Shown here: piece by piece, positions 39,740 to 58,216 of the stretch | Layout: each line of letters opens with the position of its first letter | How positions within the stretch are numbered: the first letter of the stretch is position 1 | Sequence record: PZ242158.1 | Length of the DNA: 64,000 nucleotides | DNA from: a phage | Direction: 5' to 3' (one strand) | Made by a program: the position numbers and the translations under genes | The notes under the pieces: generated by a model | Databases searched by the model: none | What the model was told of the DNA's origin: nothing | Seen by the model: the letters and a program-made list of their open reading frames with translations, nothing else

Positions 39740-39994
39740 ATGAAAATTACTTTGAAGCCAGAATGCGTTGCAAATGACCGAGCTTTTAAAGATTGCACAG
39801 TCGGTGCAATTTATGAAGCAGAGTTTTGTGAGAACCCTCTGGTAAAAGCCCTTCTGGAAGAAGGGGCCCCTTTATCACAAGAAGAGATTGATGAGCTGGA
39901 AAACTCAGCACAGTGCCTTACCTTTAAAGATGACGAAGGAGACTCTGTCTGGTGCACTGTTAATGAAGTAGTTTTTGTAAAACCTGAACATTAA
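39740..39994 (+). CDS. hypothetical protein
   Basis: 84-aa ORF, SD AAGGAG. Confidence 0.4.
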   Translation: MKITLKPECVANDRAFKDCTVGAIYEAEFCENPLVKALLEEGAPLSQEEIDELENSAQCLTFKDDEGDSVWCTVNEVVFVKPEH

Positions 39995-45813: not shown

Positions 45814-46005
45814 ATGGTAATTTTTAACCGAGATGGTATCATAGTTAGACAGCACCCGTTCCTTGAATACTATCAAATTGAGCAATGGTGCTACGGGGAT
45901 TGCAGTCACTCCTATGGGCAAAGTTGGGGATACCGTACAGTTTTTGAATCCACAGACCTTGACAAAGTAAGACAGAAAGTTTTAGAACTTATTAACAACA
46001 AGTGA
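45814..46005 (+). CDS. hypothetical protein
   Basis: 63-aa ORF. Confidence 0.3.
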   Translation: MVIFNRDGIIVRQHPFLEYYQIEQWCYGDCSHSYGQSWGYRTVFESTDLDKVRQKVLELINNK

Positions 46006-46012
46006 GTATGAT

Positions 46013-46348
46013 ATGGTAACATTGGAAAGACGTAAAGCTATCGCCGCCACACTGGCAGACATCTTTTGGGATTGCAATTTAAAAGATACCCGATATTGTG
46101 GCGCATCTGTAGATGCATTATTCCCACGGCCCACTATTGTTGCAATGGGAAACCTGTCAAACGTGGTGTATGGAGCATGGGACAAAGAAGGTGGATTTTA
46201 TATCTGGCAACCTGACTACGGGACCTGGAAAGAGGTAAGGGGTGCGGATGACTTTGGGCCTGCAGTTGCCAAAACGATGGATGGCTGGCAAATTTATGTT
46301 GGAAATGACATGAAGCTGAAAGGCGAGATTGTTTACTGGTTACCTTAA
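46013..46348 (+). CDS. hypothetical protein
   Basis: 111-aa ORF. Confidence 0.4.
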   Translation: MVTLERRKAIAATLADIFWDCNLKDTRYCGASVDALFPRPTIVAMGNLSNVVYGAWDKEGGFYIWQPDYGTWKEVRGADDFGPAVAKTMDGWQIYVGNDMKLKGEIVYWLP

Positions 46349-46368
46349 GAAAGTGCAGGAGATAAAGT

Positions 46369-46614
46369 ATGAACAAAGGGTGGACATTTGTAGACGGCGT
46401 TGAAAACATGCCTCTAGGAAAGTATATTGTAGCCATGGCAGATGAGAATGGTAAGGTAGATTTCGGAGCTTGCGAGATTGTTCTTGCAGGATCTGGTGAC
46501 CATGTGCACAAAACTGGGATAATTAACGGTCATTTCTACTTTGATTACAACCCTGTTGTGGCGTATATGGCTATGCCAGAATTCGAGTTCCCAAAGGAGG
46601 GTGCGGATGTTTAA
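46369..46614 (+). CDS. hypothetical protein
   Basis: 81-aa ORF, SD GCAGGAGA. Confidence 0.4.
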   Translation: MNKGWTFVDGVENMPLGKYIVAMADENGKVDFGACEIVLAGSGDHVHKTGIINGHFYFDYNPVVAYMAMPEFEFPKEGADV

Positions 46615-46804
46615 GCTTAAATCTGCATGGAACATCGCTGTGGGAGACGAGATCCGCATCCCAGGCGGAAAGACAATCATGAAGATATCTCGTATCGAGT
46701 ACGAAGGTGATCGTGTATTCCACATCTTTGCAGAAGATGGTCGAGAAATTTATATACAGGCAGGTTCTCACATTTATATCCGTAAGAAAGGGGACGACAA
46801 ATGA
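46607..46804 (+). CDS. hypothetical protein
   Basis: Start at ATG 46607 after AAAGGAGG. Confidence 0.35.
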   Translation: MFKLKSAWNIAVGDEIRIPGGKTIMKISRIEYEGDRVFHIFAEDGREIYIQAGSHIYIRKKGDDK

Positions 46805-47130
46805 CAGAGATCATCATTTCAACTGCAGGGTATGTGTTCCTGACAATCATTGCACTGACTATTTTGGTTACAGTGTATGGGTTTGTTATCCTTCCTATCC
46901 TTGAGACATTTAGTTTGTGTCGGTGTTGGAGAAAAGCTTACGGGCCACAACCGTGGAAGGACTGGCCTCACCTGGTGCGCTTAGCGTTCTCTTATGCTTA
47001 CGATCACTCTAGCAGTGCATGCATAACCGGATACCACGCCCACAATTGGAGCTGGGAAGGGTTGAGGAAGTGGAATGTTACAAAGACTATACCTCTCCGC
47101 ATGTATAAACCTAAAAACAAAGATAGCTGA
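46801..47130 (+). CDS. membrane protein
   Basis: N-terminal hydrophobic stretch IIISTAGYVFLTIIALTILVTVYGFVILPIL. Confidence 0.4.
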   Translation: MTEIIISTAGYVFLTIIALTILVTVYGFVILPILETFSLCRCWRKAYGPQPWKDWPHLVRLAFSYAYDHSSSACITGYHAHNWSWEGLRKWNVTKTIPLRMYKPKNKDS

Positions 47131-47441
47131 TACTTGAAAATTTCTGGCATATCAAGTATAAGGGGGATTTCTAAAATGGATTTCCTCCTTTTTGATATTT
47201 CACCAGGCCAGATATTTTAAAATTCTTAGAAAATCAGAAAACGGATAGAAAACTAAAATGGATTTTTCAGGGTAGACACGATGAGCTGAGCCACTCATCC
47301 TATCGTTTGCGTCATATTCCGGGCTACCATTCCAGATTTTCCGCGTATGCTCACACCCTTCTACCAGAACTTTCCCACTCGCCCTTGGCCTTTTATGGCA
47401 ATAATCCAGCCACTATCTTGAAGTTGCGGTACAGCTCTCCA

Positions 47442-47529
47442 AGTACTCGATCTGTTTTTCGTTTCAAAGATTGAATTTTCTGAAAATTTTTCTCGATAAA
47501 TTTCTCAGTACTCGATCTGTTTTTCGTTT
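47442..47529. repeat. 23-bp iteron pair in an AT-rich region (candidate replication origin or protein-binding array)
   Basis: AGTACTCGATCTGTTTTTCGTTT at 47442 and 47507, a degenerate third copy near 47560; nearby (C)TAAAATGGATTT x3. Confidence 0.5.
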
Positions 47530-47732
47530 TCTGAATCGGATTTTCTGGAAATCGTTCCAGCTCTCGACCTGAAATTTTTGGGGACGAAATCGATTTTTCG
47601 TTTTCAGAAATGGATTTTTAAAATTTCTATATGGGAATATTTTATGGGATACTGTTTTATAGGAAATTGTTACGGAGGGTAATTAGCATGCTAATTAAAT
47701 TTATTAAATGCGAGGAGTTCTCATTTAGAATT

Positions 47733-47751
47733 TTGAATGATAATCATTCTC
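47733..47751. promoter_or_regulatory. Fur-box-like palindromic operator, site 1
   Basis: ttGAATGATAATCATTCTC matches the Fur consensus GATAATGATAATCATTATC at 15 of 19 positions. Confidence 0.4.
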
Positions 47752-47868
47752 GTTTGCAGAATAACGGGCAGGCCCGGTGATTGTCTCCCGGCCCCTGTTG
47801 CCCCGGCTTGTTATTATAGTATCACACAGGACAAAGAAAGCAAGGATTTTTTGCATAAATTTTTAAAT

Positions 47869-47887
47869 GATAATGATAACCGTTCTC
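47869..47887. promoter_or_regulatory. Fur-box-like operator, site 2
   Basis: GATAATGATAACCGTTCTC matches the Fur consensus at 16 of 19 positions; followed, like site 1, by ..gcag..ccccggtgRttgtctccc. Confidence 0.4.
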
Positions 47888-48406
47888 ATTTTATGCAGCG
47901 CCCATCCCCGGTGGTTGTCTCCCCCGTCACCGGTGCCTGCCGTCCTTTCGATAGGCATATTGTGCCACCTGGCGGGGCCGCTGTCAACACTTCTTCAAAA
48001 ATTTTTTCTAACATAATGCACCAACCGCTGCAACCTGGCGGGGCCAGCCTGGCAGGACCTGACTGACCAGGTAGGAGAGAGTGAAAACTTGCAAACCTGG
48101 TAGGCCTATGCTACAGGGCAGGTAACAATTGAAGAGGAGGTACAAAAATGAAAAGTAATATAATCCCCTGGAAAATGTAGCGATCAACGCCGCTGAAGTT
48201 ATCACCCTGGTTGAAAAGGCTATGGCGGGAGCGTTGGAACATAAAGAAGAGTACGAAAAATGATGGTTAACCTGGCAGGGGCGGCGGCTGGAGAATTCTT
48301 CCCAAAAAATAATTCTAACTAATGGTTGACAGCTCGGAGAGTTCTGTTATTCTTATCCTCGCAAGGTGAACAACACCACACTAATTAACAGAGAGGATAA
48401 AAAATC

Positions 48407-48604
48407 ATGAACGCCTACGGAATTAAAGTACGTCGCAACACTCACCAGGCCGTCACCGATCAAATGGTTTGCCAGGTGGACGTAACCATCAACAACGGGC
48501 AAGGCCTTTATAAATTCCGTCGCGGTCAGAGCTATACCCGGCAACAGCTTAATCGTTGCGCCCTGACAAAAGGCCAGATCAACCACTGGTTTAATAAAAA
48601 ATAA
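48407..48604 (+). CDS. hypothetical small basic protein
   Basis: 65-aa ORF, SD GAGAGGA. Confidence 0.4.
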   Translation: MNAYGIKVRRNTHQAVTDQMVCQVDVTINNGQGLYKFRRGQSYTRQQLNRCALTKGQINHWFNKK

Positions 48605-48607
48605 GTA

Positions 48608-48636
48608 TTGACATATAGTCTGACACCAAATACACT
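48608..48636 (+). promoter_or_regulatory. sigma70-like early promoter
   Basis: TTGACA, 17 nt, TACACT. Confidence 0.55.
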
Positions 48637-48668
48637 AAAAGCACAAAAGACACTAAGAGGATAAAATC

Positions 48669-49067
48669 ATGAAAACCACTACCTTTAATTTTGATAATGC
48701 GGACTTTTCTTTTTCTGATGTCAAGAACTGCCGCCGTGATCGTGGATTTTACAAGGCTTATAATCTGGTGGGCCTGGACGATGACAATAATTTGCACGAA
48801 GTAGCTGAGATCCGGTATTATGCCGCCGCCAGTGGTAACACTCACTACTGCGTGTTTTGGATTCACGACAACAAGAACAATAAGTACGGTTATACTGGCG
48901 GCAAGGCGAGCGGTCACGGTTACGATAAAGCTAACGCAGCACTTGAGAGCGCATTAAATGCTATGGGGATCACTGCCGACGGCTGGATCTACGAAGAAGA
49001 GTTTTTGTCGGCACTTGCTGACCACCTGGGCTATAAAAAGCACATTGTGACATGCGCCCACGAATAA
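48669..49067 (+). CDS. hypothetical protein
   Basis: 132-aa ORF, SD AAGAGGA. Confidence 0.45.
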   Translation: MKTTTFNFDNADFSFSDVKNCRRDRGFYKAYNLVGLDDDNNLHEVAEIRYYAAASGNTHYCVFWIHDNKNNKYGYTGGKASGHGYDKANAALESALNAMGITADGWIYEEEFLSALADHLGYKKHIVTCAHE

Positions 49068-49074
49068 AAATCAT

Positions 49075-49102
49075 TGACACGCTGCAAAATTTAAGTAAAC
49101 TA
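49075..49102 (+). promoter_or_regulatory. sigma70-like early promoter
   Basis: TTGACA, 16 nt, TAAACT; followed by leader hairpin GGCGGGAA-tgt-TTCCCGCC (49113..49131). Confidence 0.5.
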
Positions 49103-49149
49103 GACACAAAAGGCGGGAATGTTTCCCGCCAACACAAAGGAAAAAGATC

Positions 49150-49554
49150 ATGAATAAGAACGTACGCCGCATCATGAATGAACTGGCAAACGATGAAAAA
49201 ATTATTGACATGCATTTGATCAACATTTGCCGCCGTTGTGTAACATATAACAACCGCGCCGCAAAAGCGCGTGAGATGAACGCAAAAGGCACCTTAAAGC
49301 CATTCCAGGTGGTGGTAAAGGCCATTAAAGATGTAACTAATACGGCAAACCAGGTACAGGGGAGCACCAACGAGAGTACCAATATTGATCCGGCTTACAT
49401 CATGAAACGGATCCGGACCTGCAAGAACAAAGAGCAAGTGTATAATGTCATAGACTGGTTGGATTCTATGGGCGATGTGGTGTACAATAGATTCTCTGCA
49501 GCTATTGAGATCCAGCTTGACAGGTTAGACGGTAAAGTACTTAAAACTTACTAA
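49150..49554 (+). CDS. hypothetical protein
   Basis: 134-aa ORF, SD AAAGGAAAAAG. Confidence 0.45.
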   Translation: MNKNVRRIMNELANDEKIIDMHLINICRRCVTYNNRAAKAREMNAKGTLKPFQVVVKAIKDVTNTANQVQGSTNESTNIDPAYIMKRIRTCKNKEQVYNVIDWLDSMGDVVYNRFSAAIEIQLDRLDGKVLKTY

Positions 49555-49559
49555 ATTTA

Positions 49560-49600
49560 TTTTTAGATGGCCTTGACTCCAGGGCCATCAATAAAGTAAA
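49560..49600 (+). repeat. repeated intergenic hairpin element, copy A
   Basis: TTTTTAGATGGCCTTGACTCCAGGGCCATCAATAAAGTAAA; 9-bp stem GATGGCCTT/AGGGCCATC, loop GACTCC; TTGACT in the loop. Confidence 0.6.
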
Positions 49601-49634
49601 TTAATCTCAGCTAAGCGAAAAAGGGGGCTTTAAG

Positions 49635-49754
49635 ATGAGCACTACACGCCAATACACAAAGGTAACTATTATCGCCTGCGTTGTCGGTTACATCCTGGCG
49701 CAAATGTTAATGAGCAGCGCTAACAGTTTTGCAAAATTTTTCTTAAATTTTTAA
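49635..49754 (+). CDS. 39-aa hydrophobic peptide (below ORF-track cutoff)
   Basis: ATG 49635 after AAAGGGGG; MSTTRQYTKVTIIACVVGYILAQMLM... Confidence 0.3.
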   Translation: MSTTRQYTKVTIIACVVGYILAQMLMSSANSFAKFFLNF

Positions 49755-49782
49755 TTGACAAGCTAACTTAGATTGATATACT
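49755..49782 (+). promoter_or_regulatory. sigma70-like early promoter
   Basis: TTGACA, 16 nt, TATACT. Confidence 0.6.
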
Positions 49783-49833
49783 TAAACACGTAAACGGGAA
49801 AACTTCCCAGAGCACACAAAAGGAGAAAACACC

Positions 49834-50175
49834 ATGACTACTATGACCGCCGCAGAAAAAGCTATTCAGATCGCCGCACTGAAAAAACAGATCGCAGACC
49901 TTGAGAACAAGATCGATAACTTTGAAATCGACGAGGACAAGTACGACGAAAACTATGATGAATGGTTAGACGAGATCTACGGCGAAATTATGATCGGAAA
50001 CATTTCTTTTCTTCCGTCGCGTATCCTCAAGGAGCTAGATCCTATCGCTTACCGCTGCGGATTTAGCGACTACATCGACAGCCTGGATATTGAGGACGAT
50101 GAAGAATACCAGGAATTACAGACAGAGTTAGAAGAAGCAAAAGAAGAGCTTGCAGAACTGGAAGAAAACGAGTAA
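49834..50175 (+). CDS. highly acidic small protein
   Basis: 113 aa with long Asp/Glu runs (DEDKYDENYDEWLDE, DIEDDEEYQELQTELEEAKEELAELEENE). Confidence 0.45.
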   Translation: MTTMTAAEKAIQIAALKKQIADLENKIDNFEIDEDKYDENYDEWLDEIYGEIMIGNISFLPSRILKELDPIAYRCGFSDYIDSLDIEDDEEYQELQTELEEAKEELAELEENE

Positions 50176-50180
50176 GATTA

Positions 50181-50221
50181 TTTTTAGATGGCCTTGACTC
50201 CAGGGCCATCAATAAAGTAAA
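50181..50221 (+). repeat. repeated intergenic hairpin element, copy B
   Basis: Identical 41-mer to copy A. Confidence 0.6.
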
Positions 50222-50264
50222 CTTTATACTGTTAACACTGAACTAATGCATAGGAGTTAAAACC

Positions 50265-50510
50265 ATGGCAGCACTAATCACCAAATATTATGCCCCTACC
50301 AACACCAAAAGCGCCCGTATCATGGTAAAAGGCTTCGGACGTAAAAAGGTGTACACCTGGGATTATGCCTTAGACACGGAAGACAACTACACCAACGCGA
50401 TGACCGATTTTATTAATGATCTGAACACGCGGATCTTGACAAATTATAAAATTACCGATATTGCCTATATAGGGGAAGGCGGGATCTGTTTTGTCGGTAT
50501 CGTCAAATAA
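50265..50510 (+). CDS. hypothetical protein
   Basis: 81-aa ORF, SD TAGGAG. Confidence 0.45.
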   Translation: MAALITKYYAPTNTKSARIMVKGFGRKKVYTWDYALDTEDNYTNAMTDFINDLNTRILTNYKITDIAYIGEGGICFVGIVK

Positions 50511-50514
50511 GCTG

Positions 50515-50556
50515 TTTTTTCGGTGGTCCTGGTAGCAGGGCCATCTATAAAGATAG
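50515..50556 (+). repeat. repeated intergenic hairpin element, variant copy D
   Basis: TTTTTTCGGTGGTCCTGGTAGCAGGGCCATCTATAAAGATAG; 3' arm identical to other copies, 5' arm has two transitions (A>G, C>T) that keep pairing only as G-U wobbles. Confidence 0.5.
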
Positions 50557-50585
50557 TTTATCAATACAATGAAAGGAGAAAGTAC

Positions 50586-50939
50586 ATGATCAGCGGGGCA
50601 AGTTTTATTATTGGCGCTATTGCTACGGCTTTAATTGTAAACAAGATCCAATCTAAAAACGAAAAAGATAGCAACGCCCTTACAGAATACCCGTTTTGGG
50701 TATTCAACGACAATGAAGACTATATTATCAAGTACAAGAATGAGAAGGGCGACCAGGTAACACCGCGACCGATCCCGGCTTACAAGATGCAAGAAACACT
50801 ATACCGCCTAAAGGCTGGAGGCGCAAAAATCGTAGACTTTTGGGGATACGATCACACAGATCAGGAAGTTATAAAGCGCCGTATCCGGGCTATTCAGGCC
50901 AATATTGAAGTTAGCAAGGGGGGAATATATGAAGATTAA
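50586..50939 (+). CDS. membrane protein
   Basis: Start at ATG 50586 after GAAAGGAGAAAG; N-terminal hydrophobic helix ISGASFIIGAIATALIV. Confidence 0.4.
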   Translation: MISGASFIIGAIATALIVNKIQSKNEKDSNALTEYPFWVFNDNEDYIIKYKNEKGDQVTPRPIPAYKMQETLYRLKAGGAKIVDFWGYDHTDQEVIKRRIRAIQANIEVSKGGIYED

Positions 50940-51126
50940 TTTTGAGAAGATTGTAAAGCGATCTCATGCTTCCGAAGAGCTGCCGGAACGCCGCCAGCGC
51001 AACAATAAACTGAATAAGCCAAAAAGATTTGGGAAGATCTGGCGAAATCATTATGATCGCAAATTACCGGGCCTGCTTTTGGAACGTGAACGACAGGCGG
51101 AACGATACCGCCACAAAGGCAAATAA
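50929..51126 (+). CDS. small basic protein
   Basis: Start at ATG 50929 after AAGGGGGGAA; Lys/Arg-rich. Confidence 0.35.
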   Translation: MKINFEKIVKRSHASEELPERRQRNNKLNKPKRFGKIWRNHYDRKLPGLLLERERQAERYRHKGK

Positions 51127-51134
51127 CAACCAAC

Positions 51135-51160
51135 GCCCCGCCATTGTGCGGGGCTTTTTA
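51135..51160 (+). terminator. intrinsic terminator
   Basis: GCCCCGC-cattgt-GCGGGGC + TTTTTATTT. Confidence 0.6.
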
Positions 51161-51307
51161 TTTCTATCCTACGAATAGCGCCCCCGGTTGGCCCTGTAAG
51201 CGCCAAAAAGGCCCCACCTATGCAATCGCCCCCCTTTAACCTGAAAACATCGCTTAGGGCCGTTTTATGGCGTTAAAAATATCATTGACAGTGATTTTAT
51301 TTAAAGC

Positions 51308-51335
51308 TTGACATCTTAAACAGGTTAGCTATACT
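51308..51335 (+). promoter_or_regulatory. sigma70-like early promoter
   Basis: TTGACA, 16 nt, TATACT. Confidence 0.55.
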
Positions 51336-51367
51336 AACCACATCAAAGAGAGAAAGGAGTAAACGCC

Positions 51368-51628
51368 ATGCGTAAATTAAAAAATTTTGATAAAGTTGAT
51401 GTTGTCCTGAATAATTTTTACTACTGCAACAACAAGGCCATTTGGTGGCGTGATAGTTCCACCGATAAAGTTAAAGCTCGCTTTCTCCAAGGGCACTGGC
51501 AAGGCCGTCCAGTGATTAAAATACTGGGGCAACTGGTAGCGTTTAAAAATTGCCGCCGTGTTGATGACGTTGAAGAGATCTTGAACATTTTACGCCACAA
51601 TAATTTAAAAAATAGTGTTGACAAGTAA
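51368..51628 (+). CDS. hypothetical protein
   Basis: 86-aa ORF, SD AAAGGAG. Confidence 0.45.
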   Translation: MRKLKNFDKVDVVLNNFYYCNNKAIWWRDSSTDKVKARFLQGHWQGRPVIKILGQLVAFKNCRRVDDVEEILNILRHNNLKNSVDK

Positions 51629-51645
51629 ATCTCGATAAGTATACT
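51618..51645 (+). promoter_or_regulatory. sigma70-like early promoter
   Basis: TTGACA, 16 nt, TATACT; followed by leader hairpin GGCGGGAAAACTTCCCGCC (51656..51674). Confidence 0.6.
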
Positions 51646-51702
51646 TAAACACACAGGCGGGAAAACTTCCCGCCACTAACAAAGAAAATAGGAGAAAATA
51701 TC

Positions 51703-52326
51703 ATGACCACCGTTAACATTACCACAGGTTACAATTTATCTTTCGACGTGCTGACCGACGAACAAAAAGAAAAAGCTATTGAAATGGTCCGCGAAAGAGA
51801 AGAACACAGCGGGGATAATTTTTTTGCAGAAAGTGTAATTGAACACTATAAAGAATATGTCTTTCCAGAGTACGGCCTTGAAGATACCGAAGTACGTTGG
51901 TCCGGCTTTTGGTGTCAAGGCGATGGCGCGTCAATCAGTGCTGAAAACGTGGATTTAGAAAAATTCTTGCGTAAAGTAAAGGCCCTGACCAAGTTCCGAT
52001 CAATTCGTCACTTGTTCGGCACAATGCACGATGGCGAGTTATCAGCCAGTGTTGAACGTATCCCGTTTAGCCATTATCATCACGAAAACACAATAGGAGG
52101 GTGCATCGATACTAATTGGCTAGACCTGACCACCAAGCAAGAGGACAAAGTTGAAGAGCTGGAAGAGCTGATCACCGAGACGGTACGGGAGCTATCCCGC
52201 AAGGTTTACGTAGACCTGGAGGAGGCCTATCTTGAACAGTTTACTACCGAAAACCTGATCGGCCTTATTGAAGCCAATGATTGGCGGTTTGATGTGGATG
52301 AATATGGGGAGATGAGTTTTTCATAA
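51703..52326 (+). CDS. hypothetical acidic protein
   Basis: 207-aa ORF, SD TAGGAGAAAA. Confidence 0.45.
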   Translation: MTTVNITTGYNLSFDVLTDEQKEKAIEMVREREEHSGDNFFAESVIEHYKEYVFPEYGLEDTEVRWSGFWCQGDGASISAENVDLEKFLRKVKALTKFRSIRHLFGTMHDGELSASVERIPFSHYHHENTIGGCIDTNWLDLTTKQEDKVEELEELITETVRELSRKVYVDLEEAYLEQFTTENLIGLIEANDWRFDVDEYGEMSFS

Positions 52327-52334
52327 ATAAAGTG

Positions 52335-52362
52335 TTGCAATAATCTAAAAACCTGCTATATT
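52335..52362 (+). promoter_or_regulatory. sigma70-like early promoter
   Basis: TTGCAA, 16 nt, TATATT; followed by leader hairpin GGGGCGAG...TTGCCCC (52373..52392). Confidence 0.5.
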
Positions 52363-52416
52363 AAAAACTCAAGGGGCGAGATGACTTGCCCCCCACAAAA
52401 CAAAGAGGAAAACATC

Positions 52417-52797
52417 ATGAAAAACACTACTAAAGCTATTGACACCGTTATGTTTAACCTGGTTACATTCCGTGAAGATATGAAAGATCTTCCACGTGAA
52501 ACAGTGTGCGACCATATCGAAAACTATCGCAAACTAATCAAAGAGTTGCCTTTAAAACGTGACCAGTACGCGGCTAACGCTATGCTTAACGCCATGATCA
52601 AAAAGATGATCCAGTGTGATTTAACTCTGGCCTATGATTATGCAGGCGGTCGTTTTGCAGTATACAATCAGCCCGTGCCCGGTATGAGCACCACCGAAGA
52701 ATTGCACGCGTTAAATCTGAAACAAGATGTATGGGATAACATGCCCCGCGTGGTGGTGTGGGCAGAAAGCGGAAAGATTTACGGCGATAATTTTTAA
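52417..52797 (+). CDS. hypothetical protein
   Basis: Start at ATG 52417 after AAGAGGAAAA. Confidence 0.45.
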   Translation: MKNTTKAIDTVMFNLVTFREDMKDLPRETVCDHIENYRKLIKELPLKRDQYAANAMLNAMIKKMIQCDLTLAYDYAGGRFAVYNQPVPGMSTTEELHALNLKQDVWDNMPRVVVWAESGKIYGDNF

Positions 52798-52861
52798 TCA
52801 GGTAACAGGCGGCATATTTGCCGCCTTATTGTTAAACAGAACTGCAAAAGAGGTACATAGA

Positions 52862-53233
52862 ATGGAATTTATTATTTTGGCTGTAGTAGTTGCCTTGTTC
52901 AACGCCTGGATCGCTGGCAAGATGGGTAGATCCGCTTTTTTATGGTTTATTATATCTATTTTCCTGGGGGTGGTTGCAACTATTGTACTTGTTATCCTTG
53001 CAATTGTTGACAAGGGGAATAATAGAAAGGGTAAAGTATTTTCAGACCTGTACGACGCTCAAACATTTGTCAACGCCTACTACAGCGATCTTCCAGTCTC
53101 CCTACGTTGCAGCCTTGCACAACAGGTTTTCGATGAAGCTAAAACCAGAGATCACGCCCATGAGATTTGTTTAACTGAGGCGGATCGCCTATTTGAGAGG
53201 AATAGAAAATATGTGGACCAGCCGTTTAAATAA
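52862..53233 (+). CDS. membrane protein
   Basis: Start at ATG 52862 after AAGAGG; two hydrophobic helices (FIILAVVVALFNAWIA, FLWFIISIFLGVVATIVLVILAIV). Confidence 0.4.
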   Translation: MEFIILAVVVALFNAWIAGKMGRSAFLWFIISIFLGVVATIVLVILAIVDKGNNRKGKVFSDLYDAQTFVNAYYSDLPVSLRCSLAQQVFDEAKTRDHAHEICLTEADRLFERNRKYVDQPFK

Positions 53234-53432
53234 TGCCACGTTAATTAACCCCTTTAGTGAAGATTTGAAGCCAGCCGCCTGGCGGGATGGATTCAATAAC
53301 GAAAGCTTTATTTTCAGGCCTGATCTTAAGGAATTTTATAACAATGGATCGAACAACGACAGAGATAATTTTTCTTGTAATGTGCGTGGTGATAATACTC
53401 CTGGGAGCCATTGCAAACCACGTCACTGCTAA
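53211..53432 (+). CDS. hypothetical small protein (weak)
   Basis: ATG 53211 after GAGAGGAA; overlaps end of upstream gene. Confidence 0.25.
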   Translation: MWTSRLNNATLINPFSEDLKPAAWRDGFNNESFIFRPDLKEFYNNGSNNDRDNFSCNVRGDNTPGSHCKPRHC

Positions 53433-53452
53433 CAGGAGGAAAGGGGGAGACG

Positions 53453-53572
53453 ATGACACCCAAGGATAAGCCCCGCACCGATAAGGCGCGCCGTGTTATG
53501 GTATGGCTTGAGATCATCGCCCTTGAAATATTGTTAGGCGTAGGGATGTATTTTATCGCTGTAAGTAATTGA
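53453..53572 (+). CDS. 39-aa membrane peptide (below ORF-track cutoff)
   Basis: ATG 53453 after AGGAGGAAAGGGGGAG; hydrophobic VMVWLEIIALEILLGVGMYFIAV. Confidence 0.35.
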   Translation: MTPKDKPRTDKARRVMVWLEIIALEILLGVGMYFIAVSN

Positions 53573-53576
53573 TAAC

Positions 53577-53615
53577 GGCCCCGATCCCTGGGGCCTAACT
53601 TTTCAAATTTTTTTT
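53577..53615 (+). terminator. intrinsic terminator
   Basis: GGCCCC-gatccct-GGGGCC followed by TAACTTTTCAAATTTTTTTTC. Confidence 0.5.
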
Positions 53616-53626
53616 CTCCCTGAGTG

Positions 53627-53655
53627 TTGCAATCCGATCCAGAATATGGATAATA
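53627..53655 (+). promoter_or_regulatory. sigma70-like early promoter
   Basis: TTGCAA, 17 nt, ATAATA; shares core AATATGGATAATAA with the promoter at 54791; followed by hairpin GGGGAG-aca-CTCCCC. Confidence 0.5.
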
Positions 53656-53713
53656 ACAATCAACGGGGAGACACTCCCCACCGCATAGACAAAGTTCCAA
53701 AAGGAGAAACAAA

Positions 53714-53914
53714 ATGAGCAACAATATCCGCGTTATTAACTTCAAAAAAGAAGAAAAAATTGCCGTGCTGATTGACGGTCAAGAAATCTTTAAAGGTGAT
53801 TATGAAGATCATCAAACGGCGATTAGTATCACTCGCGTGATTGGTTACCATAATTTTTACCCTCAAGGCGCTGAGGCAGCAGTAAAACTAATTAAAGAGA
53901 TTGTAGGCCTGTAA
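53714..53914 (+). CDS. hypothetical protein
   Basis: 66-aa ORF, SD AAAGGAGAAA. Confidence 0.45.
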   Translation: MSNNIRVINFKKEEKIAVLIDGQEIFKGDYEDHQTAISITRVIGYHNFYPQGAEAAVKLIKEIVGL

Positions 53915-53920
53915 AATTTA

Positions 53921-53961
53921 TTTTTAGATGGCCTTGACTCCAGGGCCATCAATAAAGTAAA
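53921..53961 (+). repeat. repeated intergenic hairpin element, copy C
   Basis: Identical 41-mer to copies A and B. Confidence 0.6.
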
Positions 53962-54005
53962 TTTAAACCCTGTTAAAATAATCAGTGCAAAAAGGAGTAA
54001 TGATC

Positions 54006-54305
54006 ATGTTTATCCAGGCTAATAATCTTTATTTCTTTGATGGTCAGATCGTAGACGGCGTGGAGGTGGAAATCACCGGGTGCCCTGGCGGTCAGGTTAT
54101 GACTTTTCGGAATAATGCCTTTGATGATTCTCATATCGTTATGAGAATGGAAGTTAGTAAGCTGGATGACAAGAAAACACTCATTGATTATTCCGTGAAA
54201 GATCATCCAGACTACCACATGATCTATGGTGATTTGTGCATTGTTGACCGTGACAAGGTGGGCGGCATTGTGATCGCTATTGTGAACGATGTTTTCTCAA
54301 ACTAA
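54006..54305 (+). CDS. hypothetical protein
   Basis: Start at ATG 54006, 8 nt after AAAGGAG. Confidence 0.4.
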   Translation: MFIQANNLYFFDGQIVDGVEVEITGCPGGQVMTFRNNAFDDSHIVMRMEVSKLDDKKTLIDYSVKDHPDYHMIYGDLCIVDRDKVGGIVIAIVNDVFSN

Positions 54306-54322
54306 TTTCAGCAGGTGATTTT

Positions 54323-54673
54323 ATGAAAGTAAAACTATATTACCTTAATGAGCTTAACCCCCTTGCCCAGGTCCGCGCCCTGGCTAATACCTTGATTTGT
54401 GAGAAATCTGTATATTGTGTTGAGCTTAACTCCATGCGTGAACGTCTCAAAGGTGGTTACTTTGACATCCATGCTGCAATCAACGGCCTGAATATGGAAT
54501 TTATCCGCTTACGTAACAGCCGCCAGAATCTGGCAAGAATGGAACAAGATCCGGCCCACCTTCGTAAGCTGGTTATTGAAAATCATCTAATGTTTAATGC
54601 CGATGGTGATTATTACCATTTTCACCGTAAACGCTGGTACCGTAGCGGCAATATAGGAAAGAATGCAAAATAA
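54323..54673 (+). CDS. hypothetical basic protein
   Basis: 116-aa ORF. Confidence 0.4.
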   Translation: MKVKLYYLNELNPLAQVRALANTLICEKSVYCVELNSMRERLKGGYFDIHAAINGLNMEFIRLRNSRQNLARMEQDPAHLRKLVIENHLMFNADGDYYHFHRKRWYRSGNIGKNAK

Positions 54674-54708
54674 GGCCCCTGGCAGGGCCTGCAGCGATAT
54701 AATCACAT

Positions 54709-54742
54709 AAAGGCTATGCGGTTGCATAGCCTTTATTATTTT
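54709..54742 (+). terminator. intrinsic terminator
   Basis: AAAGGCTATGC-ggtt-GCATAGCCTTT (11-bp stem) + ATTATTTTGG. Confidence 0.6.
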
Positions 54743-54790
54743 GGCGTTACAGCGGCCCCCAAGGCGCTTAAAAAATTTTTAAAGAAGTAC

Positions 54791-54819
54791 TTGCATCAAG
54801 TCCTACAATATGGATAATA
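54791..54819 (+). promoter_or_regulatory. sigma70-like early promoter
   Basis: TTGCAT, 17 nt, ATAATA. Confidence 0.5.
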
Positions 54820-54879
54820 AAGGGTGTCGGGGGGCGGTGAGGCCTCCAATCATTAACCGGATAGATAGGAGTTAAAACC

Positions 54880-55164
54880 ATGGCTATTGTTACCGTTGGC
54901 GATGTAGTAGAAATGGAAGCCAAATACTTAAAAGCTGGTATGCATATCATACGGAATGATCAAGAATTGTTATTAACCATGGTTGAATATAATCCCGGTC
55001 AGGATTATCCAAGCATTGACTACTTTTTCCAGTATGTTGATGAAGAATTAAAAGAGGATGAGGCTTATCAGGGTGAATTTTGTAATTTCTTTTGCCCTGA
55101 TGAGGTTGTAAAAGTTATCTATCAACCTGGCGTACCTTTCCCGCTGCACGCTATCAACAAATAA
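54880..55164 (+). CDS. hypothetical protein
   Basis: 94-aa ORF, SD TAGGAG. Confidence 0.45.
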   Translation: MAIVTVGDVVEMEAKYLKAGMHIIRNDQELLLTMVEYNPGQDYPSIDYFFQYVDEELKEDEAYQGEFCNFFCPDEVVKVIYQPGVPFPLHAINK

Positions 55165-55219
55165 ACCTGGCGGGGCCGAAAAGGCCCCCAATTATGAAAA
55201 TAAAGAGAGGCAAATCATC

Positions 55220-55453
55220 ATGATGGAACAAATTAAACGCGCCGAGGCTATTAATGGCAACGTGATCTATTTTGTCAGCAAAAACGAAAAAGGCGTACCC
55301 TATGCGGCGGTAATAGTACAGCCTGACGGCGATTATTGGTGTACTGTGTACGGCGCTTATTCTTTTGGGCGTCCAGTGCATGATAAAATTTTGAAAGTAG
55401 CGAACCCTACCGGGAAAAATATCACAGCAGAAAAATTTTTTGAAAATAGTTGA
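55220..55453 (+). CDS. hypothetical protein
   Basis: 77-aa ORF, SD AAAGAGAGG; leader hairpin GGGGCC-gaaaa-GGCCCC upstream. Confidence 0.45.
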   Translation: MMEQIKRAEAINGNVIYFVSKNEKGVPYAAVIVQPDGDYWCTVYGAYSFGRPVHDKILKVANPTGKNITAEKFFENS

Positions 55454-55477
55454 CATGACCATATAAGACTGTAGTAT
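55450..55477 (+). promoter_or_regulatory. sigma70-like early promoter
   Basis: TTGACA, 16 nt, TAGTAT; followed by leader hairpin GGGGC-aa-GCCCC. Confidence 0.5.
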
Positions 55478-55524
55478 ATAAATCAAAGGGGCAAGCCCCA
55501 CCAACCACAAAGAGGATAAAAATC

Positions 55525-55704
55525 ATGGCTATTATTGCAAAGACTGAGATCGTAGGCTTGGATTCTATTCTCCTCGCATATGAGGAAGCTATAGAAATGT
55601 ATGTGGTTTCCTATGGTGAGTATATCCGTGAATATAAATCTATTGATCTGGCTTTTGAATGTTATATTCGCCAGGTTAATAAAGCGTACGATGATTATCG
55701 TTAA
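55525..55704 (+). CDS. 59-aa hypothetical protein (below ORF-track cutoff)
   Basis: ATG 55525 after AAAGAGGATAAAAATC. Confidence 0.35.
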   Translation: MAIIAKTEIVGLDSILLAYEEAIEMYVVSYGEYIREYKSIDLAFECYIRQVNKAYDDYR

Positions 55705-55794
55705 AATAGTTTGAAAACAAACAACCATCTTACAAAGCATAATACATAAGGCGGTGGAATGGTCCGCCACCTGGAACAAGAAGAGGAAAACAAA

Positions 55795-55899
55795 ATGAAA
55801 CAGAAATTAATTGATGCGGTGATCCTGGTTATTGCCCTGGGTATTGGCCTGATTGCAACCATGGCTAATGTGATCTTGTCTTCCAACGGTATCGGGTGA
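55795..55899 (+). CDS. 34-aa membrane peptide
   Basis: ATG 55795 after AAGAGGAAAA; hydrophobic DAVILVIALGIGLIATMANVIL; leader hairpin upstream. Confidence 0.3.
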   Translation: MKQKLIDAVILVIALGIGLIATMANVILSSNGIG

Positions 55900-55908
55900 G
55901 GTTGGCAA

Positions 55909-56124
55909 ATGATCACTAACAAAACAGGCAAAACGGAATTTTTACGCAACTTACAGATCGGCAAGCCTGAGATCTGGTATTGCACTAAAACACCACGTGA
56001 CGAAATGAAAGACTTCACCGCCACGCTGCAACGGGTAAAGATATCCATCACGCAGAAAAAGGCCTTGATAGTGGTGGAAGGTGAGATCCCTCAAACCGTT
56101 GTTATAGTTGAGCGTACAGCATAG
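55909..56124 (+). CDS. hypothetical protein
   Basis: 71-aa ORF. Confidence 0.35.
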   Translation: MITNKTGKTEFLRNLQIGKPEIWYCTKTPRDEMKDFTATLQRVKISITQKKALIVVEGEIPQTVVIVERTA

Positions 56125-56215
56125 TTTAATTTATACCGATACCCGAAAATTAACCAACAAAGCATAAACAGGCGGTTACCGCCGCCTTAAACGTAGCAGA
56201 AAGAGGATAGACACA

Positions 56216-56500
56216 ATGAAAAAGATGATCGCAGTGGTTGCCCTGGTTGTTGGACTTAATGCGCCTGTAATGGCTAAAGAGCTGGCAAAAGAGGTTGATC
56301 TAACGGATATCCATGCCGTCAATCAAATCGGGGTTACTTATCGCTTATGCCTTGCCGCTAAAACTTTTAATGACGGCACAACAGAGTACTACGGATTCGA
56401 GGGTATCCGGTGCGGTGAGCTTGCTCGCGACCTTAAGGAAGATCCAGACCTGGAAGATCTGCCCATCACCGTAAACGGTAAAGCTTACGTAAACCGTTAA
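56216..56500 (+). CDS. secreted small protein
   Basis: Signal-peptide-like MKKMIAVVALVVGLNAPVMA; SD AAGAGGA; leader hairpin AGGCGG...CCGCCT upstream. Confidence 0.45.
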   Translation: MKKMIAVVALVVGLNAPVMAKELAKEVDLTDIHAVNQIGVTYRLCLAAKTFNDGTTEYYGFEGIRCGELARDLKEDPDLEDLPITVNGKAYVNR

Positions 56501-56502
56501 CC

Positions 56503-56640
56503 ATGAGAAAGATAATCATCACCTTGGGGATTGTGGCGGGATCGCTGGCGCTCTTTCTCCTTATGGTTAGGTATGTGCTGATCGGTATTGTCCTGGTAGT
56601 CAGTGATCTATTGGAAACGGTTGGCACCTTGTTTTAAAGA
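56503..56640 (+). CDS. 45-aa membrane peptide
   Basis: ATG 56503; IIITLGIVAGSLALFLLMVRYVLIGIVLVV. Confidence 0.3.
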
Positions 56641-56649
56641 GCGGTAAAA

Positions 56650-56841
56650 ATGAATATCGAACAAGTTAGAAAGGTATTGGCGGTACTGCGTTATCATAAT
56701 CATAGAAAGGTCATAGACGATCCTGATTATGTCGATTCAAGCCTGGAAGGGGATACACTACAAGCCATAAGTAATATGCAAGAATTGCTAAAGCGCATGA
56801 CAGAGAAAAACCGACCGGACTACATAGGCGAAAAAATATAA
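56650..56841 (+). CDS. hypothetical protein
   Basis: 63-aa ORF. Confidence 0.4.
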   Translation: MNIEQVRKVLAVLRYHNHRKVIDDPDYVDSSLEGDTLQAISNMQELLKRMTEKNRPDYIGEKI

Positions 56842-56856
56842 TCCTTATAAACTACA

Positions 56857-56887
56857 AAACAGGGCTTGCAATGGTCCTGTTTTTTTG
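56857..56887 (+). terminator. intrinsic terminator
   Basis: ACAGGGC...GTCCTGT hairpin + TTTTTTTG. Confidence 0.55.
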
Positions 56888-56970
56888 TTATACTTGTTTC
56901 ACGGCAGGCACCTGGCGACGGGGGGAGACAATCACCGGGTGTGCCTGCTATATAAAAACTATAAAAACCG

Positions 56971-56999
56971 TTGACATCTGCCAGGTGCTGGGGTAGCAT
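56971..56999 (+). promoter_or_regulatory. sigma70-like early promoter
   Basis: TTGACA, 17 nt, TAGCAT. Confidence 0.5.
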
Positions 57000-57054
57000 T
57001 TATCTCGAAGGGGGCAAAAGCGCCCACACAACAACCGGAAGAGAGGAAAACGCC

Positions 57055-57327
57055 ATGTTAAGCTGGATTAACCAAGAAGTTGAATCACGTTTTAATGCTA
57101 TTTGGGATCTCATCGAAAAAGAAGACGGCACATCAAGCCCCTACCTCAACAATTTGGAATTCCATTTTGTGGAAGCGATGAACGCAGAACATGATCACGA
57201 AGGTGGCGCGGATGAGTTCGCTAAAGGTTATGGCTTTAACAATGCCAACGAAATGATCGAGGCGGTAGTACTCCAGGCTGAGGAAGATTATCAATTAAAA
57301 ACGCTTGAATTCTGCCGCCGCAAGTAA
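57055..57327 (+). CDS. hypothetical acidic protein
   Basis: Start at ATG 57055 after AGAGAGGAAAA. Confidence 0.45.
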   Translation: MLSWINQEVESRFNAIWDLIEKEDGTSSPYLNNLEFHFVEAMNAEHDHEGGADEFAKGYGFNNANEMIEAVVLQAEEDYQLKTLEFCRRK

Positions 57328-57389
57328 TAAGATAATGACACGGGCCAAAAGGCCCACTAAACAAAAACCACATAAAGAGGAAAAACATC

Positions 57390-57653
57390 ATGAAACGCCT
57401 TGATCAGCTCAAATTAGTTCAATATATGGCTTATCGTGTTCTTGAAGTCCAGAAAGGTAGCAAAAAAGAGGTTTGCGAGAAAGCTTATAAGATCTTCACT
57501 CGCAAAAAAGATGACTGGATGCTACGCCAGACCAAAAAGGCTGACATCTTGGGGTACCTGGAAGAAGAGATCCGACTTGAAGAGCAAGAAGAGATCCGCC
57601 GTAGTGAGGCAGATTATCAGGCAGCTTGGGAAAACTGGATGAGCAACAAATAA
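57390..57653 (+). CDS. hypothetical protein
   Basis: 87-aa ORF, SD AAAGAGGAAAAA; leader hairpin GGGCC-aaaa-GGCCC upstream. Confidence 0.45.
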   Translation: MKRLDQLKLVQYMAYRVLEVQKGSKKEVCEKAYKIFTRKKDDWMLRQTKKADILGYLEEEIRLEEQEEIRRSEADYQAAWENWMSNK

Positions 57654-57718
57654 TACAACAAGGTGCACGGTCAGGGGCTTAAAGCCCCTTGATCACATAA
57701 AAATTATGCTATCCCTGG

Positions 57719-57747
57719 TTGACAGGGATCGGCAGTTTTGCTATATT
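57719..57747 (+). promoter_or_regulatory. sigma70-like early promoter
   Basis: TTGACA, 17 nt, TATATT. Confidence 0.55.
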
Positions 57748-57796
57748 CTTTTTTGAAGGGAAGTTGTAAGAAAATTAACTAAGAGGTAAAAACACC

Positions 57797-58216
57797 ATGA
57801 ACATTAAATCTAATAATCCGGCATATAGCTTTGATAACGCTTTTTGTCACGGTCCGGCGGCGAAAGGATTCGAAATCGATGGTAAACTAATTATTGTCAA
57901 TGTTGACGGGGAAGAGGTTGCAGTATATCCGGTGGCAGACGTAAAAAGCCGTTTACAATGCCGCATGGATGTTACCGCCTATCAGCTTGATCCGGTCCGC
58001 ATAGTTGCCCTGGTCCTGGAAGAAGAAATTAAAGCCATGCACCATAGCAACAGGTTTATTGGTGACGCTCAGGATAATATGAAGGTGTGCCGCCATAAAG
58101 TTAATGAAGTGCTTAAAGAGTACGGCTATAAAGATCTTATGATCAAACGTGATGAAAAATTCCGGTACCGTAACGACCTGGCAAATCGGATTTTTGAAAT
58201 ATACGAATCATTATAA
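57797..58216 (+). CDS. hypothetical protein
   Basis: 139-aa ORF, SD TAAGAGGTAAAAA. Confidence 0.45.
   Translation: MNIKSNNPAYSFDNAFCHGPAAKGFEIDGKLIIVNVDGEEVAVYPVADVKSRLQCRMDVTAYQLDPVRIVALVLEEEIKAMHHSNRFIGDAQDNMKVCRHKVNEVLKEYGYKDLMIKRDEKFRYRNDLANRIFEIYESL

Follow-up and report, generated by a model that had tools for sequence, protein, structure and literature searches.

A four-copy intergenic RNA hairpin resembling T7 RNase III sites in an rV5-like Vequintavirus

Escherichia coli RNase III requires a helix of at least 11 bp between the loop of its substrate and the cut, while the sequence of the tetraloop is irrelevant to it (PMC1540722). The optimal, or canonical, distal box of a substrate is UA/UG, and a G-C or C-G pair in the proximal box (pb) blocks binding at the second position (pb2) and catalysis at the fourth (pb4) (PMC1540722). 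An idealised substrate comprises 22 bp, the proximal boxes of natural cellular substrates are degenerate, and internal loops restrict cleavage to one strand, which leaves 3' hairpins that stabilise the RNA (PMC3867540). Another repeated signal, the promoter-early stem-loop (PeSL), is present in about 50 copies in the T4-type phages RB49 and phi1 (PMC2839356; PMC4122927). Here we describe an intergenic hairpin element that occurs in four copies in a 64-kb stretch of phage DNA (record PZ242158.1), the whole of which is hereafter called the window. From the likeness of the element to T7 sites we propose, with moderate confidence, that it is a T7-type processing and stabiliser signal that host RNase III would cut once, leaving a 3' hairpin on the upstream cistron.

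Between 49000 and 54500, the window shares 99.7% identity with Escherichia phage rV5_ev156 and 90%–97% with over 100 further Vequintavirus genomes; its source is an rV5-like Vequintavirus. The phage is a myovirus of 136 kb and has no RNA polymerase of its own. The + strand of the window is the transcribed strand of an early small-gene region, a run of short open reading frames (ORFs) of unknown function, and the rV5 genome paper assigns this region to a leftward transcription unit, "genes 10-1-238-164". That paper lists sigma-70 promoters and Rho-independent terminators only, and the repeat element was not found in its text or supplements.

Copies, fold and conservation of the element

The 41-mer TTTTTAGATGGCCTTGACTCCAGGGCCATCAATAAAGTAAA occurs on the + strand at 49560, 50181 and 53921, where a first-pass annotation made from the letters alone had placed it; an exact search returned all three occurrences, and none is expected by chance (100 shuffles). 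A variant copy that had been reported at 50515 is real, although its gapless alignment with the 41-mer starts at 50516, and it is 71% identical, with 12 of 41 positions differing. It had been described as retaining the 3' arm AGGGCCATC while A>G and C>T changes in the 5' arm produce G.U pairs. This description stands, but a third 5'-arm change was missed, a T>C that converts the U.G pair of the main copies into C-G. The main copies are designated HP1, HP2 and HP3 and the variant copy HPv. HP1–3 are identical to each other over 41–50 nt, and a sequence of 17 nt, CAGGGCCAUCWAUAAAG, is invariant in all four paralogues and nearly so in all relatives. As annotated, the 41-mers stand directly after stop codons (TAA 49552-54, 50173-75 and 53912-14), with a gap of 5–6 nt that is the same for the variant; the next genes had been put 40–80 nt away, but their start codons (49635, 50265 and 54006) lie only 34–44 nt past the 41-mer. 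All four copies are located within operons on the transcribed strand, beginning at the stop codon, with no terminator before the downstream gene and with AU-rich sequence downstream of each hairpin.

On the + strand, RNAfold (61-nt folding windows) returned the same bipartite hairpin of 49–55 nt at all four sites. From the base upwards, a lower, AU-rich helix of 10–13 bp (UUUAUUUU... paired with ...AAAGUAAA) leads to an internal loop with 2 nt in its 5' strand and 3 nt in its 3' strand, above which an upper, GC-rich helix of 10 bp carries a tetraloop. Minimum free energies (MFEs) at the four sites range from -21.8 to -28.2 kcal/mol (z -5.4 to -7.8) on this strand and from -9.2 to -14.5 kcal/mol on the other. 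In HP1 (49554..49602, + strand; -22.7 kcal/mol, z -6.9), the lower helix is formed by 49554-49563 and AAAGUAAAUU at 49593-49602, the internal loop by UA 49564-65 and AAU 49590-92, and the upper helix by GAUGGCCUUG at 49566-75 and CAGGGCCAUC at 49580-89, closed by the tetraloop ACUC (49576-79). HP2 (50175..50223, + strand) contains the identical 41-mer core, with one A.A mismatch in the lower helix, and HP3 (53915..53963, + strand) likewise contains the identical core. In HPv (50507..50561, + strand; -28.2 kcal/mol, z -7.8, versus -9.2 kcal/mol on the other strand), a lower helix of 13 bp (50507-19 / 50549-61) is followed by the internal loop UC 50520-21 / UAU 50546-48, the upper helix GGUGGUCCUG / CAGGGCCAUC (50522-31 / 50536-45) and the loop GUAG. 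The hairpin as first annotated was only the upper stem, whose 9–10 bp would by themselves not be long enough for RNase III; the annotation overlooked the AU-rich helix below it, and the TAAATT or TAAACT that was thought to follow the hairpin is in fact the 3' strand of this lower helix.

The element was compared across orthologous regions of ten relatives, which were picked via a neighbouring protein or overall similarity and not via the element itself. A locus search with the neighbouring 81-amino acid (aa) protein gave only two IMG/VR contigs, and synteny-based comparison is limited to the genus, as homologues of this protein outside Vequintavirus are found only in unrelated phages. Within the element 3–14 of about 51 columns are variable, compared with 27–64 of about 110 in the flanks, though the upstream flank is coding. 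Substitutions among the relatives either lie in one of the two loops, apical or internal, or keep the pairing: C50512-G50556 becomes U-A, A49555-U49601 becomes G-C via a G.U intermediate, U.G becomes C-G and G.U becomes A-U. HPv, too, shows compensatory changes among relatives. In a joint alignment of 29 distinct copies, standard pairs occupy 98.8% of 578 pair cells, versus 36%–58% in slid alignments, and none of 500 shuffles reached the observed value. Both-sided, compensatory changes occur in four pairs of this alignment, and RNAalifold, run independently, recovered the same 20 pairs.

When the same structure is read on the other strand, it is only 86.2% paired because 79 G.U cells turn into C.A. 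A covariance model (R1) scored the + strand sites at 73.6–81.1 bits (HP1 81.1, HP2 78.7, HP3 79.1 and HPv 73.6; E about 1e-14 to 1e-16) and the other strand of the four sites at 31–43 bits, that is, 35–40 bits lower, and the next-best match in the window reached 13.4 bits. The first-pass annotation had proposed selection on an RNA hairpin of the + strand, and the two pairing figures, the 79 G.U cells, the four compensated pairs and the RNAalifold result bear this out. Pairing, covariation and strand bias together therefore identify the + strand RNA as the selected structure, which a DNA palindrome fails to explain, and we regard this conclusion as well supported.

Comparison with RNase III sites of phage T7

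The intergenic regions of T7 that contain RNase III sites were folded and their shared geometry was written as a direct pairing descriptor, with T7 serving as the positive control. The descriptor demands an upper stem of 9–11 perfect pairs with at least four G-C, a loop of 3–6 nt, a 5' bulge of 1–3 nt, a 3' bulge of 3 nt and a lower stem in which at least 8 of 10 positions pair. An earlier scan, a regular expression over RNAfold MFE structures, recovered only R1 among the T7 sites and was discarded as too strict. In T7 the descriptor gives nine matches, six of which (854-900, 1429-1478, 3102-3148, 5849-5897, 13855-13902 and 36818-36866) lie just upstream of genes 0.3, 0.5, 1, 1.1, 4.7 and 18.5, respectively. 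The others are a match at 36949-36999, inside gene 18.5, and two at 82-132 and 39859-39909 that represent the terminal repeat hairpin (CCTAAGGGTT...GACCCTTGGG) with its TC/TTT internal loop, which is presumably not among the classical R sites. A cut placed after the 3-nt bulge of the six intergenic matches falls at 890, 1468, 3138, 5887, 13892 and 36856, which we take to be R0.3, R0.5, R1, R1.1, R4.7 and R18.5 (Dunn & Studier 1983). RNase III sites are absent from the feature tables shown for the T7 GenBank records NC_001604 and V01146. The hairpin at 5849-5897 has a GCAA tetraloop, a UA/UG box and a U/C "pair", matching the published description of R1.1 (PMC1540722). Applied to the 64-kb window, the descriptor matches exactly the four copies, HP1, HP2, HP3 and HPv, whereas 10 shuffles gave 0–1 matches; in the rest of the genome, it matches one true terminator only.

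The likeness extends from geometry to sequence. The asymmetric 2-nt/3-nt internal loop is shared in size with the six T7 hairpins, and its sequence is UA/AAU in HP1–3, as in R1, and UC/UAU in HPv, as in R0.3, R0.5, R1.1 and R18.5. At the apical end, HP1–3 have a closing G-C followed by U-A and U.G, in the same register as R1.1 (C-G, U-A, U.G), and HPv has its closing pair followed by U-A and C-G, as in R0.5. HP1–3 thus carry the U-A/U.G distal box, in a register read from the sequence. The 10-bp upper helix and the lower helix of 10–13 bp amount to about 20–22 bp of coaxial helix, and the distance from loop to cut is made up of 10 bp plus the non-canonical pb4. In the proximal box, pb2 is A-U (G.U in HPv) and pb4 is A.A or C.U, both non-Watson-Crick, so that neither position holds a blocking pair. 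The 2-nt/3-nt loop is of the kind that would confine cutting to the 3' strand. The suggestion of an RNA processing site in the first-pass annotation is strengthened by the geometry, the internal-loop sequences and the distal box that the element shares with T7 RNase III sites (PMC1540722).

In the processing role that we favour, host RNA polymerase would transcribe each copy within an early polycistronic mRNA, and the RNA would fold into a coaxial hairpin of about 22 bp that is broken by the 2-nt/3-nt internal loop. Host RNase III would bind via the U-A/U.G distal box beside the loop and the A-U at pb2, and would nick the 3' strand only, 13 nt past the tetraloop and right after the WAU of the internal loop, a position that fits the 28-nt product of R1.1 (PMC1540722). 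By analogy with T7 R1.1 (PMC1540722), the predicted cuts are at 49592/3 in HP1, 50213/4 in HP2, 50548/9 in HPv and 53953/4 in HP3, all on the + strand. It is possible that the upstream mRNA would thereby become monocistronic, with one hairpin in its 5' untranslated region (5'-UTR) and another at its 3' end, and so be stabilised, and that the fate of the downstream cistrons would be uncoupled from that of the upstream cistron.

Several points weigh against this proposal. The correspondence between our T7 cut positions and the named R sites is assumed. The register of the distal and proximal boxes was itself derived from the T7 sequence and the text of PMC1540722. In that register, the preferred G-C at pb1 and A-U at pb3 are replaced by U-A and G-C, respectively; pb1 is G-C in all six T7 sites and in the uR1.1 optimum and U-A in none, and substitutions at pb1–3 weaken binding in a minimal substrate (PMC1540722). 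For pb3, uR1.1 prefers A-U and T7 R1 has C-G. The element is also limited to one genus plus one transfer. In phage Gotham (L002, MT682716; 1137-1190), five nucleotides, the GGGCC of the upper 3' arm, are deleted from the HP1 orthologue, the covariance model score of which is down to 48.5 bits, and this copy is probably non-functional; individual copies are therefore dispensable. A literature search found no transcript-end or rnc-dependence data for Vequintavirus. Finally, gene conversion or promoter constraint could contribute as much as RNase III recognition to the exact identity of the three main copies.

Alternative explanations

It is possible, though we judge it unlikely, that the element is a PeSL-type composite without RNase III, in which the DNA would be mainly a sigma-70 promoter for the downstream gene. 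The hairpin in read-through RNA would then do no more than attenuate or pause transcription or passively block 3' exonucleases, as has been suggested for PeSL stem-loops of T4-type phages. A sigma-70-like promoter is predicted in HP1 (49573..49602, + strand), with the -35 hexamer TTGACT spanning the end of the upper 5' strand and the loop, an 18-nt spacer and the -10 hexamer TAAATT in the lower 3' strand. The arrangement recurs on the + strand in HP2 (50194-50223, -10 TAAACT) and HP3 (53934-53963, -10 TAAATT), and AAATTTATTTTT stands upstream of the promoter-like sequence of HP1–3. In a consensus scan, TTGACT-18-TAAAYT has 9 of 12 consensus matches, a PhagePromoter prediction is annotated at this site in phage Gotham, and the genes of this region usually carry their own promoter. 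In 20 copies of HP1–3 and additional metagenomic copies, loop substitutions occur at loop positions 3 and 4 only, which correspond to the last base of the -35 hexamer and its 3' neighbour. TTGAC is fixed across HP1–3 copies, with the exception of one complex variant that still reads TTGATA.

The composite also fits the description of PeSLs (PMC2839356) in that ORFan cassettes are shuffled between copies. The IMG/VR contig L003 has a single chimeric copy, whose 5' flank is that of HP1 and whose 3' flank is that of HP2, and lacks the 621-bp HP1-HP2 interval (49603..50223, + strand). Phage KKE7M (Stephanstirmvirinae, Justusliebigvirus) belongs to a different subfamily, and its homology to the window is restricted to 49754..50221 on the + strand, a mobile cassette of promoter, 113-aa ORF and HP2 with 95% identity. 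This homology runs from the -35 of the promoter P49755 through the ORF to the end of HP2, after which an unrelated gene follows. In genome L004, one loop variant is shared by all three copies, pointing to gene conversion among them. At the level of sequence comparison, these cases demonstrate that the copies act as recombination junctions; we take the near-identical copies to be patches of homology that allow cassettes of promoter, ORF and hairpin to be lost, gained or exchanged.

The shorter genome of rV5_ev146 (L011, LR699804) was likewise considered as a product of element-to-element deletion, and this was rejected, as neither of its junctions (49140>49647 and 51076>56930) coincides with an element. 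rV5_ev146 is a 91%–94% relative and not a derivative, and two early-region blocks, HP1 and HP3 included, are absent from it. Its junctions overlap by about 15 nt, away from the hairpin elements; the gene content of the region thus also changes by other routes.

A composite that is mainly a promoter is at odds with HPv, which lacks usable sigma-70-like hexamers (its -11 position is T) although its hairpin is complete and shows compensatory changes; the function of the hairpin is therefore independent of the promoter. Moreover, where position 49601 in the -10 changes from T to C, its pairing partner changes from A to G, so that structure constrains that position. The 18-nt spacer and the 9/12 match are far weaker than those of the nearby early promoters (16–17 nt spacers and 10–11/12 matches), the element is not included in the stringent promoter list of the rV5 authors, and the hairpin has no U-tract for termination. 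The PeSL-type composite also leaves unexplained the T7-like geometry of a 10-bp helix, a 2x3 loop and a further 10-bp helix, as well as the UA/UG box. On sequence grounds a dual role of HP1–3 as promoter and hairpin is plausible, with the balance about even, and the predicted promoter within their DNA may restart transcription for the next gene. The hairpin's own function is treated here as primary.

The distribution of the element bears on a different alternative. With filters off, the covariance model found only the four sites in the window and no further copy in the remaining 72 kb of the genome. A search of related phages, which the first-pass annotation had recommended, was run with BLAST and places the element in essentially one genus: it is present in 121 phage records, all but one of them Vequintavirus, with typically three detectable copies per genome, the variant copy being too divergent for BLAST detection. 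Neither the element nor an analogue was found in 96 kb of PVP-SE1, a member of another genus of the same subfamily, small-gene region included. Exact 16-mer scans of metagenome and viral contigs supplied 176 loci to the covariance model, which accepted Vequintavirus-type contigs only, the others being chance 16-mers. Rfam gave no match at the four sites at E<=1 (46000-58000 scanned; one chance match elsewhere).

Such a genus-specific family is what a phage-specific factor would predict. We consider it rather improbable that the hairpin is recognized by another factor, either a phage RNA-binding protein or endonuclease for which it would be a translational or stability operator, or RNase E/G, for which it would be a structural anchor, with cleavage in AU-rich single-stranded RNA immediately downstream. 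AU-rich sequence does lie downstream of each hairpin, and the invariance of the 17-nt sequence exceeds what pairing needs. However, the proteins flanking the hairpins all fall in PHROG families of unknown function, with no candidate RNA-binding protein or endonuclease among them, and the presence of the cassette as a unit in KKE7M, an unrelated subfamily, argues for a factor provided by the host. The match to the determinants of E. coli RNase III would also have to be coincidence.

A purely DNA-level element (a palindromic protein site, a cruciform or a recombination site) whose RNA fold has no function would fit an inverted repeat whose copies are recombination junctions. It is very unlikely and, as a pure palindrome, is rejected for strand asymmetry, which amounts to 98.8% versus 86.2% of pairs, 35–40 bits in the covariance model and 8–19 kcal/mol of folding energy; in addition, the compensatory changes keep RNA pairing and not the palindrome. 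Least credible is a Rho-independent terminator or attenuator of early transcription, which a stable GC-rich hairpin right after a stop codon and the lowered reporter expression seen with PeSL stem-loops (PMC2839356) might suggest, and which is rejected for the missing U-tract, already noted in the first-pass annotation: on either strand, none stands behind the upper stem-loop or behind the complete hairpin, the sequence there being A-rich or mixed. A terminator scan lists real terminators nearby (51135, 52807, 53577 and 54707) and none of the four copies.

Transcription units and relation to described systems

HP1, HP2 and HP3 each close the first cistron behind an early promoter, and HPv closes a second cistron. 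In the first operon of the + strand, the promoter at 49074..49130 (TTGACA-16-TAAACT), with the 5'-UTR hairpin GGCGGGAATGTTTCCCGCC (49112-49130), drives the gene 49150-49554, which is followed by HP1 and the ORF 49635-49754. In the second, also on the + strand, the promoter at 49755..49808 (TTGACA-16-TATACT), with the 5'-UTR hairpin GGGAAAACTTCCC (49796-49808), drives the gene 49834-50175 and onward through HP2, the gene 50265-50510, HPv and the genes 50586-51126 to a terminator at 51135-51154. In the third, again on the + strand, the promoter at 53627..53683 (TTGCAA-16-GATAAT), with a 5'-UTR hairpin at 53661-53683, drives the gene 53714-53914 and onward through HP3 and the genes 54006-54673 to a terminator at 54707-54736. 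Every strong early sigma-70 promoter of the region (TTGACA-16/17-TATACT type) has a short GC-rich hairpin that follows its -10 within about 10–15 nt; these hairpins, for example GGGAAAACTTCCC and GGCGGGAAAACTTCCCGCC, are found at 49112-49130, 49796-49808, 51656-51674, 52373-52392 and 53661-53683. The hairpin, which would stand at the extreme 5' end of the transcript, is probably a 5' stabiliser, and promoter plus 5' hairpin is a second repeated module.

Three further observations concern the surrounding sequence. The terminator at 51135-51154 and a promoter at 51308 are separated by about 150 nt of non-coding sequence with an unusually high GC content (51155-51300; gcgcccccggttggccctgtaagcgccaaaaaggccccacc...), in which there is no ORF and no Rfam match. 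The 81-aa ORF 50265-50510, between HP2 and HPv, has 43%–47% identical homologues in siphoviruses of about 60 kb (Skure, CAjan and slur01) and, by tblastn, weaker homologues in Pseudomonas and Klebsiella phages, while tblastn gave no homologue in other Vequintavirinae genera; it thus appears to be a widely travelling small early gene. Finally, 17 "Campylobacter phage" records (MG0656xx, host Campylobacter jejuni) are 93%–95% identical to E. coli rV5-like phages in this region, and their host labels look doubtful, or the preparations may be contaminated or mixed.

The rV5-like phages are widely isolated and have been used in biocontrol of E. coli O157 and in phage therapy. To our knowledge, their early gene expression is almost unstudied. 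If RNase III does cut the copies, mRNA processing in the manner of T7 would extend to a large myovirus whose transcription depends on the RNA polymerase of its host, and the predicted cleavage bonds are exact. The structure of the cassette and its transfer to KKE7M illustrate how small early "ORFan" genes can travel together with their own expression and putative stability signals, and the cassette offers a compact natural part for phage engineering. Tentatively, we also entertain a broader possibility, in which each element would be a module boundary with three roles: an RNase III stabiliser for the upstream ORF, a sigma-70 promoter for the downstream ORF and a patch of recombination homology. 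The apical loop would hold the -35 and the lower stem the -10; RNase III would cut read-through RNA, whereas transcripts begun at the promoter would be without the site, and cassettes of the form promoter - 5' hairpin - ORF - 3' hairpin would move within Vequintavirus and to other phage subfamilies. If this is true, RNA processing signals would be linked to modular phage genome evolution, and some PeSL "terminators" would really be RNase III sites.

The systems closest to the element, which is limited to one phage genus, are the T7 R sites and PeSLs. With the T7 RNase III signals it shares an intergenic position in early polycistronic mRNA of a coliphage, a GC-rich upper stem of 9–10 bp, a small loop and a lower stem of about 10 bp. 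Promoters near or overlapping the sites are also known in T7, where R1 encloses the E. coli promoter C (3113) and phi promoters adjoin R1.3, R3.8, R4.7, R6.5 and R13; these are precedents for the promoters predicted in HP1–3. Sequence homology between the T7 sites and the rV5 hairpins is, however, limited to short motifs, the lower stem is interrupted in T7 and a perfect AU-rich helix here, and cleavage here is a prediction. Intrinsic terminators share the GC-rich hairpin immediately after a stop codon, but they have a 3' U-tract, whereas here a U-rich tract on the 5' side and an A-rich tract on the 3' side are mutually paired as the lower helix.

With PeSLs, the element has in common that it is a repeated composite intergenic motif of ORFan-rich regions that starts at the upstream stop codon and includes an AT-rich tract (PMC2839356). 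Both have G-T pairs in the stem, and in PeSLs, as predicted for HP1–3, the stem-loop lies between or overlaps sigma-70-like -35 and -10 hexamers. In both, too, ORFan cassettes are deleted or inserted when copies recombine, and a single chimeric copy is left behind, as in contig L003. The two differ in lineage, here Vequintavirinae, and in copy number, here four versus about 50. Where the PeSL stem of G/C runs has been interpreted as a terminator, the present element is a long bipartite hairpin of the RNase III type. One of its copies, HPv, is without a promoter, and the strong early promoters are separate elements with 5'-UTR hairpins of their own.

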